Origin: an uncultured Chthonomonadaceae bacterium
GTDB lineage: Bacteria > Armatimonadota > Chthonomonadetes > Chthonomonadales > Chthonomonadaceae
Reading direction: 5' to 3'
DNA: 64,000 bases
Assembly (NCBI GenBank): GCA_963835065.1
Contig: CAWIEK010000046.1
Span: 119,219 to 183,218 of the forward strand
The position numbers and the translations under genes are program-made. The notes beneath the pieces are model-generated. The model was not told the DNA's origin and made no database searches. It was given only the letters and a program-made list of their open reading frames with translations. Positions 6,765-9,367 of this stretch are shown one piece after another. The first letter of the stretch is position 1; each line of letters starts with the position of its first letter.

Positions 6765-7200
6765 ATGGAACCATTGGCAGCAACGATGGACAATGGCGCA
6801 GGAAGCGTCCGAAACGGCGCGGCTGGCGCAAGGGGATGCGGCTATCGCTCGGCAGCAAGTCGCGTACTATACGCGGCGTATCAAGCGGCAACGGCGATTA
6901 TTGCTGTATCGTAAAGCTAGAAACCGCCCGTAACAGCGCGAAGCCTGGAGCCACGCCGAAACACCCGCCATTTCTTGCCACAAACACCTGCATTCGGTTA
7001 TTACGTTCAGCGGAGTAAAGCGCTATGACATTGGCGTAAACGGCTGAGGGAACTGTACAAATAACGGGTTACTGCGGATTATGTTGGCAGTGTCGATGTG
7101 ACACCCCTGGCGGCTGCAAACGCCATCAAAGATATGCGCTATATGCTCAACACGCGAAGTTATTTTGCGAAAGAGCAATTCTTATGGCTCTGCCGAAATG
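6765..7200 (+). pseudogene. HEPN-domain gene, frameshifted paralog of 8005-8406
   Basis: Fragments ME..WQQRWTMAQEA, SAASR..YAAYQAATA, EAWSHAETP, RLRELYK..RVTADY match the intact HEPN ORF; end approximate. Confidence 0.7.
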
Positions 7201-7208
7201 GAACAGAA

Positions 7209-7454
7209 ATGGCGGAGCAAGATAATATGGCGGCGGATTGGCTCAAACAAGTTGCCGCTGACGTGAATTGCACCCAATTGTTATGTGCCACCTACACTGC
7301 GCGCTGATAGAGATGGCTGTACATACACGGTACAACTGCAGTAATGCGGGTGACGCTTCGGAAAGAACCAATGGTGCTGGAGCCTGGAAGATCTTGGAGT
7401 CTCACGAACGCAAAGCCACGCTGGCATTTGATGATAATGCCCGCTGGCGCGTAG
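7209..7454 (+). pseudogene. Small HEPN-partner protein (family X, copy 1), frameshifted
   Basis: MAEQDNMAADWLKQVA... ending ..SW..KPRWHLMIMPAGA*, similar in layout to 8409-8648 and 9128-9367. Confidence 0.5.
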
Positions 7455-7564
7455 CAAAAAGCGATTGTTCAAAGCCTTCGCAATGCCGAACTGATTACTA
7501 AATTTTGAGGTATAATAGCAAGCCGGTCTGCGGACAACGGATGCCCGACCGGTTTTTTCTTGCA

Positions 7565-7654
7565 TCGGTGTTCGGTGTTCGGTATTGGGTATTCGGAAAG
7601 ATACGCGCAATCAATCTGAACACCGAACACCGAACACCGAACACCGAACACCGA
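7565..7654. repeat. Palindromic tandem-heptamer element (GGTGTTC)n-spacer-(GAACACC)n
   Basis: Complementary arms ending just upstream of the rpsJ SD. Confidence 0.9.
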
Positions 7655-7671
7655 CACAGAAAGAGGAACCA

Positions 7672-7992
7672 ATGCCACCCCTCGGACGACAGGACAAGGT
7701 TCGCATTCGCTTGCGCGCCTTTGACCACCGCATCCTGGATCAGTCGGCAGAAAAGATCGTGGATACCGCCAAGCGCACGGGAGCGCGCGTGGCCGGACCC
7801 GTTCTCCTGCCAACCGACAAGGTGATTATCTGCGTGAACCGCAGCACGACCATTGACAAAGAAAGCATGGAGCATTTCGAGCAGCGGACGCACAAGCGCC
7901 TGATTGACATTCTCGAACCCGGCCCCAAAACCATTGACGCGCTGATGCGCCTCGACCTGCCCAGCGGCGTTGACATTGAAATCAAGCTGTAA
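7672..7992 (+). CDS. rpsJ: 30S ribosomal protein S10
   Basis: [35 protein letters not shown]; start ATG 7672 after GAGG. Confidence 0.98.
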
Positions 7993-8004
7993 GGCAAAAT
8001 ACGC

Positions 8005-8406
8005 ATGGAACTCTGGCAGCAATGGTTTGCAATGGCGATTGAATCCAATAATGCGGCAGAAAATGCGCAAAGCGCCCAACATTGGCGTTCCAGCGTAAGC
8101 CGGTACTATTATTCAGCGTATCAGGCTGTTTCGGCTGTGTTGATTTATCGCGGACTGACGCCGCCACCAGAGGAAGAAGCCTGGGGACATGCTTCCACGC
8201 CGGACATGCTTGTGGAGCATTTCGGAACCTACATTCGCAGCAAGGATGTCAGGCAACGCTACGCAAATCAACTGCGGGAGTTGTACGCCTGGCGGATCAA
8301 AGCGGATTATCGTGGAAACGAGCAACTCCGAGCAAGCATCGGCGTTGTTCGTAAAAATGCCAACAGGTTGGTAGAAATGGCAGAGGGCATACTGCCGGAG
8401 GTATAG
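8005..8406 (+). CDS. HEPN domain protein (putative RNase toxin)
   Basis: [10 protein letters not shown] (SRAYYAxF-type motif) and C-terminal R-X4-Y motif RIKADY; 133 aa. Confidence 0.85.
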
Positions 8407-8408
8407 CG

Positions 8409-8648
8409 ATGTACGAAGATATTCGGAATTGGCTATGCACAGAAGCGCAACAACGCAACATCCAGGCTGTTTTTCACATGGATCGCGTTGAAACGCACAA
8501 CGGTTGGATTAAGTTGCCTGTTCGCATTGAGGGCGAGGATTTAGACACCGGTGATCGCGTAGAAATAATGTCGGAATTGGAAGACTCTTGGAATGACCGG
8601 GAGCCAGCGCCTGAACCTCGACTCCATTTGTCACTGACGAAGAGGTAA
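8409..8648 (+). CDS. Small acidic HEPN-partner protein (family X, copy 2), putative antitoxin
   Basis: Starts 2 nt after the HEPN stop; motif LEDSWNDREP shared with neighbours. Confidence 0.75.
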   Translation: MYEDIRNWLCTEAQQRNIQAVFHMDRVETHNGWIKLPVRIEGEDLDTGDRVEIMSELEDSWNDREPAPEPRLHLSLTKR

Positions 8649-8668
8649 CAAATAGAACTTGTTGCTTA

Positions 8669-8974
8669 ATGGAAGTTGCCTTGGCTGATTTGTTGGAGAA
8701 ACCAATTGGTTTGGATTTCGAAGCGTTTCATGCCTGGCTGCAGCAAGAGGCAAAGACGCGAAACATTCAGGCTTATTTCGCTATTCGCTCGGCGAAGATG
8801 CTTGAGGATGGCTACCTTAAATTGCCGACTTACATCGGCAATCCGGGGACTGCCTATGAACAGGTGGTTTTGATGGGAGACCTCGAAGACGCGTGGAACG
8901 ATCAGGAACCAAAGCCTGAGTTTAAGTTGCATCTCTACCCGATGGGCAAGCCCCACGAGTGGAGCGGCGAGTAG
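8669..8974 (+). CDS. Family X protein, copy 3 (orphan)
   Basis: WLQQEAKTRNIQA..GYLKLP..LEDAWNDQEPKP aligns with copy 2. Confidence 0.75.
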   Translation: MEVALADLLEKPIGLDFEAFHAWLQQEAKTRNIQAYFAIRSAKMLEDGYLKLPTYIGNPGTAYEQVVLMGDLEDAWNDQEPKPEFKLHLYPMGKPHEWSGE

Positions 8975-9001
8975 AACGACACAAGTGTGCCTGTAACCAC
9001 C

Positions 9002-9123
9002 GCGTCTTGAAGCAGTTGGCGGCATTGACATCGAAATCAAGCTGTAGGCGAAATCCGCATGGCATCGTGGCAGCAATGGCTGAATATGGCGATTAAGTCG
9101 CAGATATTCTGCCTCAAGGGTAA
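9002..9123 (+). pseudogene. Duplicated rpsJ 3' end followed by an internally deleted HEPN gene
   Basis: GGCATTGACATCGAAATCAAGCTGTAG (GIDIEIKL*) mirrors the rpsJ end; MASWQQWLNMAIKS is joined to ILPQG* (HEPN start and end). Confidence 0.8.
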
Positions 9124-9127
9124 AATC

Positions 9128-9367
9128 ATGTACGAAGATATACAGAACTGGTTTTGCACCGAAGCGCAGAAGCGGCACATCCCGGCAAAGTTCTTTATGG
9201 ATGGAATTGAAGCGCATCCCGGTTTTATCCGTATTCCTGTTCGCATCGAAGATGACAGTCTGGATTATGGGGACAGGGCGGACAGGATGCAAGATTTGGA
9301 AGACTCCTGGAATGATCAGGAGCCGAAACCAAAACTGCTGGTCATTTTGCAGCCAGCGAAACACTAA
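9128..9367 (+). CDS. Family X protein, copy 4
   Basis: MYEDIQNWFCTEAQKR..PVRIE..LEDSWNDQEPKP, close paralog of copy 2. Confidence 0.8.
   Translation: MYEDIQNWFCTEAQKRHIPAKFFMDGIEAHPGFIRIPVRIEDDSLDYGDRADRMQDLEDSWNDQEPKPKLLVILQPAKH

Follow-up and report, generated by a model that had tools for sequence, protein, structure and literature searches.

The closest described relatives of the locus treated here are the class II HEPN/MNT modules, which pair a HEPN protein of the same class (Pfam PF05168; structure PDB 2HSB of AF0298) with a minimal nucleotidyltransferase (MNT, PF01909; PMC7641770, PMC3710099). The MNT gene is almost always located 5′ of the HEPN gene, and HEPN-T proteins with Asp in place of the motif His keep a His elsewhere that is possibly catalytic (PMC3710099). 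In the type VII HepT/MntA systems (Shewanella SO_3166/SO_3165, Legionella HEPN-MNT; PMC7641770, PMC11586414) a HEPN dimer is combined with a nucleotidyltransferase partner. The signature GSX10DXD is found in both MNT classes and is required for AMPylation of HepT (PMC7641770), and the α2 helix of MNT is the shared HEPN-binding surface (PMC11586414). In RnlA-RnlB a small antitoxin without enzymatic activity keeps a HEPN RNase in check by binding its canonical dimer (PMC8266594). Here we describe an array of genes for HEPN proteins and a small partner, X, between rpsJ and rplC of an uncultured Chthonomonadaceae bacterium. It lies in a stretch of 64,000 nucleotides (GenBank assembly GCA_963835065.1, contig CAWIEK010000046.1, positions 119,219 to 183,218) that is called the window and to which all plain coordinates refer; G, C, L and f numbers are our handles for genomes, contigs, loci and families. 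The element is likely a toxin–antitoxin (TA) cassette in which a class II HEPN is paired with a non-catalytic X. It would hitch-hike in housekeeping operons, be swapped through its flanks and leave orphan antitoxins behind, a reading we favour with moderate confidence.

All genes of the array are read on the plus strand. The upstream flank is rpsJ (ribosomal protein S10, 7672..7992), followed by HEPN-2 (8005..8406), an intact class II HEPN of 133 aa and the putative toxin, and by its cognate partner X2 (8409..8648; 79 aa, pI 4.8) with a predicted α-β-β-α-β fold. Next comes the orphan partner X3 (8669..8974, probable start TTG 8681), whose orthologue in G002, a relative of the same genus, stands 3′ of an internally deleted HEPN. 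The rpsJ 3′ end, stop codon included, is repeated at 9019..9047, likely as a recombination scar; the copy shows 86% identity over 35 nt and scores 48, compared to a maximum of 30 among 100 shuffles. Behind it, the HEPN-3 remnant (9059..9123) retains 14 N-terminal codons, to which 7 C-terminal codons are fused out of frame. The intact orphan partner X4 (9128..9367), 57% identical to X2, ends 12 nt 5′ of rplC (ribosomal protein L3, 9380..10009), the downstream flank. Spacers from rpsJ to rplC measure 2–44 nt, with 2 nt between HEPN-2 and X2. Three intact X genes (X2, X3, X4) are thus counted against one intact HEPN. They are acidic paralogues with 41–57% identity to X2 and 36–58% mutual likeness, and the motif WLxxEA...LEDxWNDxEPxP is present in all of them.

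An earlier, sequence-only reading of the window had reported this motif, the surplus of X copies over intact toxins and the deleted HEPN-3 before X4, and all three are borne out. It had overlooked the copied rpsJ end and, further upstream, a damaged gene for domains 2-3 of EF-Tu. That reading had also drawn a tightly coupled array starting at HEPN-1/X1. Order and co-orientation up to rplC hold, but HEPN-1, an X-clade class II HEPN (6765..7170, end approximate, plus strand), carries several frameshifts and stops, and X1 (7209..7454, plus strand) is frameshifted, with an intact orthologue in G002 (L002:1000-1242). Since 217 nt with inverted heptamer repeats separate the X1 end from rpsJ (upstream region 7509..7671), HEPN-1/X1 is not tightly coupled to rpsJ.

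Such breaks raise the question of assembly quality. The genes rplB, rplV and rpsC are frameshifted in the window assembly (11125-12018, 12410-13118, 13473-14697), rplB being intact in G002; indel errors therefore affect the whole window. Aligned to G002, the EF-Tu-like gene and X1 show 45–47 non-triplet gaps per kb. Over 104 nt of HEPN-1, a matching short-read contig differs by 2 other letters and 6 gaps. From these alignments the breaks in HEPN-1, X1 and the EF-Tu-like gene are probably long-read assembly errors. That the whole array arose by tandem mis-joining of error-rich long reads, for which the same frameshifts and the approximately 45 gaps per kb could be cited, is nevertheless exceedingly improbable. 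No non-triplet gaps are found against G002 in fusA, orfA, rpsJ, X3 and rplC; an independent short-read contig (1060 nt, 39 other letters) spans rpsJ-HEPN-2-X2-X3, a second one connects X3 to the duplicated rpsJ end, and X2, X3 and X4 are too unlike one another (36–58%). For 7672-9367 an artefact is refuted by these data; it would apply only to the frameshifts in 6069-7454.

HEPN-2 matches PF05168 with E 1.7e-8 (35.1 bits, cut-off 22) and PDB 2HSB with E 8.8e-6, and 25 of 30 X-clade HEPNs match the Pfam family at E≤0.001. Recent PDB entries for related HEPNs are 9XBC and 9XBD, for which our literature search retrieved no paper. The protein fits the class II definition, as Asp replaces the motif His and both the Tyr and an extra His are conserved. 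In place of the type VII toxin motif RX4HXY it contains R-x3-D-Y (R97-x3-D101-Y102). Among 30 HEPNs sharing 34–56% identity, six residues are conserved at 96–100%: R28 and R33, together with R97, H62 and Y102 (each 100%) and D101 (96%). The class II HEPN is likely an RNA-cutting toxin.

The partner was followed with a 15-row X profile, which gave 147 representatives at 50% identity. Ten of these, long repeat proteins matching part of the profile, were treated as false; after removal of false and partial rows and of rows with insertions or fusions, the X alignment comprised 129 rows. In total, the X family has about 135 clusters at 50% identity and no family name. A small acidic gene of similar kind, Y, stands behind each of four further HEPN genes in the genome of the window; it has 110 homologues, none with a Pfam domain (at 90% identity, at least 110). 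Profiles of X and Y align end to end in hhalign (probability 87%, E 3.8e-6, 74 columns), and sequence searches of Pfam, NCBIfam, PADLOC and PDB returned no family for either. It had been proposed that X lacks the MNT signature. Indeed, strict GSX10DXD matches occur in 0 of 129 X and 0 of 107 Y, loose matches in 2 of 129 X, and the X strand equivalent to DxD is hydrophobic. X is not a canonical MNT.

Structural models of X2 (predicted local distance difference test, pLDDT, 95) and Y (pLDDT 92) exhibit the same predicted topology of helix, hairpin, long helix and strand. This topology is common to CzrB C-terminal domains, NifU, RimP and KH-II domains (best Z 8.2 and 7.9), with lower-ranked likeness to MntA (5YEP_A), TUT7 and CdnG. 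Foldseek searches with both models gave no match at E≤0.001, and the ESM Atlas yielded for X2 only unnamed clusters at 0.84–0.87, which are leads only. For the Y model no MNT occurred within the top 50 structure-search rows, by which the fold is not excluded. The predicted fold of X is MNT-compatible but not specific. Because the partner is a HEPN and the topology is compatible, descent of X from an MNT is plausible, and X would then be an MNT descendant with catalysis lost. Speaking against this ancestry, MntA appears for X2 only at rank 43 (Z 5.5, root mean square deviation 2.8, 64 aligned), behind the best match, the CzrB C-terminal domain (Z 8.2, deviation 2.5, 73 aligned).

For a 2:2 complex of HEPN-2 and X2 the model score was 0.78, compared to 0.00 for the best of three controls. 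Of solved complexes, 116 of 157 attain this mark, as do 2 of 215 mismatches, a calibration that holds only roughly for a 2:2 model with custom alignments. Contacts agreed between runs by at least 98%, with a partner pLDDT of at least 90. HEPN-2 and X2 are thus predicted to bind directly, the long helix and last strand of X2 lying in the model on helix 1 and the C-terminal helix of HEPN. The predicted interface comprises X2 residues 47-58 and 73-76 and HEPN residues 19-23 and 120-128. By our own mapping, the binding helix of X2 would correspond to the MNT α2 helix.

Similar to class II HEPN/MNT modules, the locus combines a HEPN with Asp for the motif His, a conserved Tyr and an extra His with a small α/β partner in a two-gene module. 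It differs in that X has neither GSX10DXD nor a Pfam family, lies 3′ of HEPN and is found inside housekeeping operons. With type VII HepT/MntA it shares a HEPN dimer and a partner of compatible topology, predicted to bind via the helix before the last strand; in contrast, the HEPN lacks RX4HXY, X lacks the catalytic aspartates and the partner gene is again 3′. Neutralisation by AMPylation is not expected, since both the HEPN motif and the aspartates are missing. Unlike HEPN-2, RnlA has several domains and an RX4-6H motif, and its active site is blocked by RnlB (PMC8266594), whereas X is predicted to sit off the conserved residues.

To what extent the arrangement recurs was determined in two surveys. 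Among the rpsJ loci fetched from 29 relatives, seven contain a cassette insert (G001, G002, G015, G017, G021, G023, G024) and 22 do not. An X profile search over all 68 genomes of the order gave matches in 11 of the 41 other members of the window's family (f1) and in 0 of 26 genomes of the other two families. In all 11, X is located at rpsJ-rplC, 3′ of HEPN or a HEPN remnant, which brings the filled junctions to 12 genomes of one family. The array is not due to chance, the same HEPN and X junction being present in 11 other genomes. Presence is patchy within genera, with G051 filled and G006 empty, and G060 filled and G013 empty. In the pair G051/G006 the first part of the spacer is replaced by the cassette and the last part is common to both.

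In a sample of 401 genomes from across the phylum, Armatimonadota, the 129-row X profile matched 37; flanking genes were named on one example per site. The order ftsA-[HEPN-X]-ftsZ occurs in 15 genomes of family f29, [HEPN-X]-mnmG in 6, where X overlaps or abuts the mnmG start, and iscS-[HEPN-X]-iscU in 6 genomes of family f14, one of them cut by a contig end. In one genome X precedes nuoG, and three further X loci are unclear. A HEPN-first search matched 89 of the 401 genomes, and each of the best 31 rows (128 bits or more) adjoins an X match, which supports a link of X to HEPN in other genomes. A separate search for related loci with HEPN-2 alone gave one locus, in which no HEPN gene is present; the range described here is therefore that within the phylum. 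For the weaker HEPN class 40 loci from the top of the list were added to 13 earlier ones, and all 53 of these sister-clade HEPNs are followed by a Y partner. The partner gene is 3′ of HEPN in all paired loci. Pfam named the upstream gene in 31 of the 53 HEPN-Y loci, 29 times co-oriented and twice opposite. Sites of Y include guaB-[..]-guaA (2), etfB-[..]-etfA (2), behind ilvH (2), before ilvC (3) and apgM-[..]-tilS. By direct counts of cassette sites, the whole HEPN-X/Y group thus tends to lodge just after the stop codon of a housekeeping-operon gene, the S10 site being one of several.

This distribution bears on the earlier proposal of an S10-operon-specific system that ties an RNase to ribosome synthesis. 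Within family f1 the 11 X-bearing relatives, all with X at rpsJ-rplC, are in accordance with it. However, other families carry the same HEPN-X clade at ftsA-ftsZ, iscS-iscU, mnmG and nuoG, so that the cassette is not ribosome-specific; the HEPN tree mixes rpsJ-site sequences with those from iscS and mnmG sites, and the cassette is missing from 22 of 29 rpsJ loci of relatives. We consider S10 specificity very unlikely, and the special link to ribosome synthesis is not supported.

Two further observations concern these loci. Most ftsA-site X proteins and both of G285 are prolonged at the C-terminus by about 60 further residues of helical appearance (L059, L060, L061, L064, L066, L069-L071, L073, L075-L078, L080, L092). 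On contig C37 of G000 (L034:1433-2410) a HEPN-Y pair is followed by an orphan second Y, a smaller array of the same pattern in the sister clade, immediately 3′ of a MazF-type gene pair and a mutS-like gene.

The state of both genes could be scored at 43 X loci, contig-end loci (G104, G285 nuoG, G076 twice) being excluded. Both genes are intact in 26, HEPN is broken or absent beside an intact X in 11, both are damaged in 3, and 3 are ambiguous because of a possible HEPN restart at Met10. None of the 43 combines an intact HEPN with a broken X. The layout is TA-like, with two small, co-oriented, closely spaced genes, HEPN first, that co-occur in 31 of 31 and 53 of 53 cases. Strict pairing, one-sided decay (11 versus 0) and the predicted complex together support a TA logic, and the sequence-only reading's suggestion of an undescribed HEPN-partner TA system stands to this extent, though not as one confined to the S10 operon. 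In the open literature, covered by titles and abstract starts and excluding most subscription journals, no account of the X partner family or its operon sites was found. The X genes in the window that lack a HEPN are likely relics of earlier cassettes.

One-sided decay could also arise if HEPN were non-toxic and HEPN-X a harmless or mildly regulatory RNA-binding passenger complex, X outlasting HEPN by its shortness or by stop-codon coupling to the next essential gene. Class II HEPNs without RX4H (PMC7641770; Asp for His in PMC3710099) and the position of the conserved HEPN residues outside the predicted interface are compatible with such a passenger. Breaking X could moreover be polar, as it lies 12 nt from rplC and overlaps or abuts the mnmG start. 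Against it stand the six polar or charged residues that are conserved at 96–100% despite 34–56% overall identity, the intactness of X3 and of the upstream X of G002 although neither is next to an essential start codon, and the complete lack, in 31 plus 53 loci, of an intact HEPN without an intact partner. We regard a non-toxic HEPN as unlikely.

Movement of the cassette was examined with a HEPN tree of 41 rows, in which the X and Y clades are separated (100/100) and the mnmG-site HEPNs form one clade. The rpsJ-site HEPNs are split over two or more positions, partly with iscS-site and partly close to mnmG-site sequences. The HEPN of G001, from the window's genus, groups with that of G017 from another genus (98/86), and the upstream X of G002 groups with X of G017 (100/96). 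In the cassettes read, no mobility gene was found, only HEPN and X between housekeeping genes; since none is present, movement or replacement of the cassette would proceed by recombination through the conserved flanking genes. Environmental contigs, which represent other strains at 80% likeness or more and whose joints are hints, not proofs, provide further alleles. In one, rpsJ-HEPN-2-X2-X3 is joined to rplC and HEPN-3/X4 is missing; in another, HEPN-like sequence directly follows the duplicated rpsJ end; and in two contigs HEPN-1 is missing between the EF-Tu-like gene and X1, which are joined directly. When the 12 filled rpsJ junctions were searched for a target-site duplication, one was found in the window alone, where it lies inside the array.

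Two known systems are comparable in this respect. Restriction-modification insertions with long target duplication or allelic substitution (PMC2853133) are likewise toxin–antidote elements without mobility gene, with filled and empty allelic sites; they resemble the window in its one duplicated flank. The differences are a putative RNase instead of a DNase and a flank duplication in 1 of 12 filled rpsJ junctions, not on both sides. In the orphan immunity arrays of the Vibrio cholerae type VI secretion system (T6SS) the newest toxin–partner pair comes first with orphan partners behind, as X3 and X4 do here, and homology-facilitated illegitimate recombination is the proposed origin (PMC5361080). 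Here, by contrast, the toxin appears cytoplasmic, delivery genes are lacking, the anchor is an essential gene and deleted toxin remnants are found.

The following course is compatible with these observations. X would bind HEPN and keep the likely RNase in check without adenylylation. At the rpsJ site the cassette would be expressed by read-through, as only 4–21 nt separate the rpsJ stop from the cassette. A promoter scan gave 2 sites versus 3.4 expected. Conserved, strongly expressed operons would offer a steady antitoxin supply as well as recombination anchors shared across genera. An incoming rpsJ-HEPN-X-rplC fragment may be anchored at one flank and joined illegitimately at the other, landing beside the resident cassette, which would explain the duplicated rpsJ end and agrees with the mechanism put forward for the Vibrio arrays (PMC5361080). 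The host may then inactivate the old toxin by deletion or frameshift with X remaining, which would result in the orphan array of X3 and X4. Release of the putative RNase on operon shut-off would be possible for any host operon.

Several points weigh against this TA reading. Class II HEPNs lack RX4HXY and were biochemically unstudied as of 2020 (PMC7641770), and a 2024 account likewise describes them without canonical RNase motif (PMC11586414). The predicted interface avoids R28, R33, H62, R97, D101 and Y102 and so leaves inhibition by X binding unexplained, and the complex score of 0.78 may have been helped by likeness to solved HEPN-MNT complexes. The 11:0 decay count overstates independence because the loci are related, HEPN is the longer mutational target, and long-read errors may account for some of the broken HEPNs. 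Of the 12 filled rpsJ junctions, just one, that of the window, has a duplicated flank, the rpsJ end. Approximately unbiased (AU) tests against one rpsJ clade and against G000+G001 were borderline, with p 0.048 each, for groups picked after inspection of the tree. Finally, TATAGT/TATAAT-like words occur 5′ of HEPN in several ftsA-site cassettes, so that read-through may not be general.

Compatible with the hitch-hiking TA cassette is a role as an anti-phage shut-off sensor kept by the host, in which the cassette is placed in strongly expressed operons so that X would be depleted, and the RNase freed, when a phage shuts off host expression; as part of the same idea, orphan X would guard against related incoming toxins. 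Fast-turning, diverse alleles at fixed sites would fit, as would the weak match of HEPN-2 to PADLOC HEPN_IX (E 5e-7, residues 16-85) and the precedent of RnlAB, a HEPN toxin–antitoxin pair that defends against phage (PMC8266594). We consider this role doubtful, as X-clade sites show no defence-island context, X has no PADLOC match and recurrent loss of HEPN with X kept abolishes any defence. A more far-reaching version of the TA cassette, put forward tentatively, is a toxin–antidote gene drive of a class II HEPN RNase with a catalytically dead, MNT-derived antitoxin. It would home without mobility genes into essential-operon junctions, with the conserved flanks serving as recombination anchors; cells swapping it for the empty allele would be killed, and the orphan arrays would immunise the host against related cassettes.

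Some neighbouring features are outside the core finding. The region of interest starts 3′ of fusA (3498-5624) with orfA (5740..6054, plus strand, 104 aa), which has no Pfam family and resembles unnamed Atlas clusters at 0.90. In G002 (L035:6683-7501) orfA lies 3′ of a 166-aa gene without Pfam match, whereas the window has orfA alone; a search of G000 with the 166-aa gene as query did not find it. From its motif this 166-aa gene looks HEPN-like. Possibly, orfA is the orphan partner of a second toxin–partner cassette type. The EF-Tu domain 2-3-only gene (about 6069-6702, plus strand; L002:386-979) is frameshifted in the window assembly and intact in G002 with 198 aa. It shares 35% identity with the complete tuf of the genome (contig C63) and occupies the usual tuf place after fusA; the fusA-rpsJ gap of G001, G015 and G023 likewise lacks tuf. 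Tandem heptamer repeats (GAACACC and GGGAACA types) in inverted arrangement occur between ribosomal genes at 7565-7654 and near 11990-12100 and 14700-14850, and G002 has an 8-nt repeat unit at the same place. Rfam matches on the repeats, to two microRNA families, were treated as chance. Long low-complexity tails or leaders are present in S3 (Gly-rich, 14023-14697) and in L22 and S17 (Ala/Thr/Glu-rich, 12567-13118 and 15573-16235). A frameshifted gene on the minus strand (38907-39316) resembles one for a canonical minimal nucleotidyltransferase (LFGSYAYG).

With the HEPN-X/Y pairs, an unnamed partner superfamily gains a predicted role, and a test case is available for the question of whether class II HEPNs without canonical RNase motif are toxins and can be controlled without AMPylation. 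The orphan X relics are analogous to the orphan-immunity arrays of T6SS. A putative TA module is found repeatedly in core-operon junctions (S10, dcw, isc, gua, etf), where it turns over without a mobility gene; inteins and homing elements likewise choose conserved sites.

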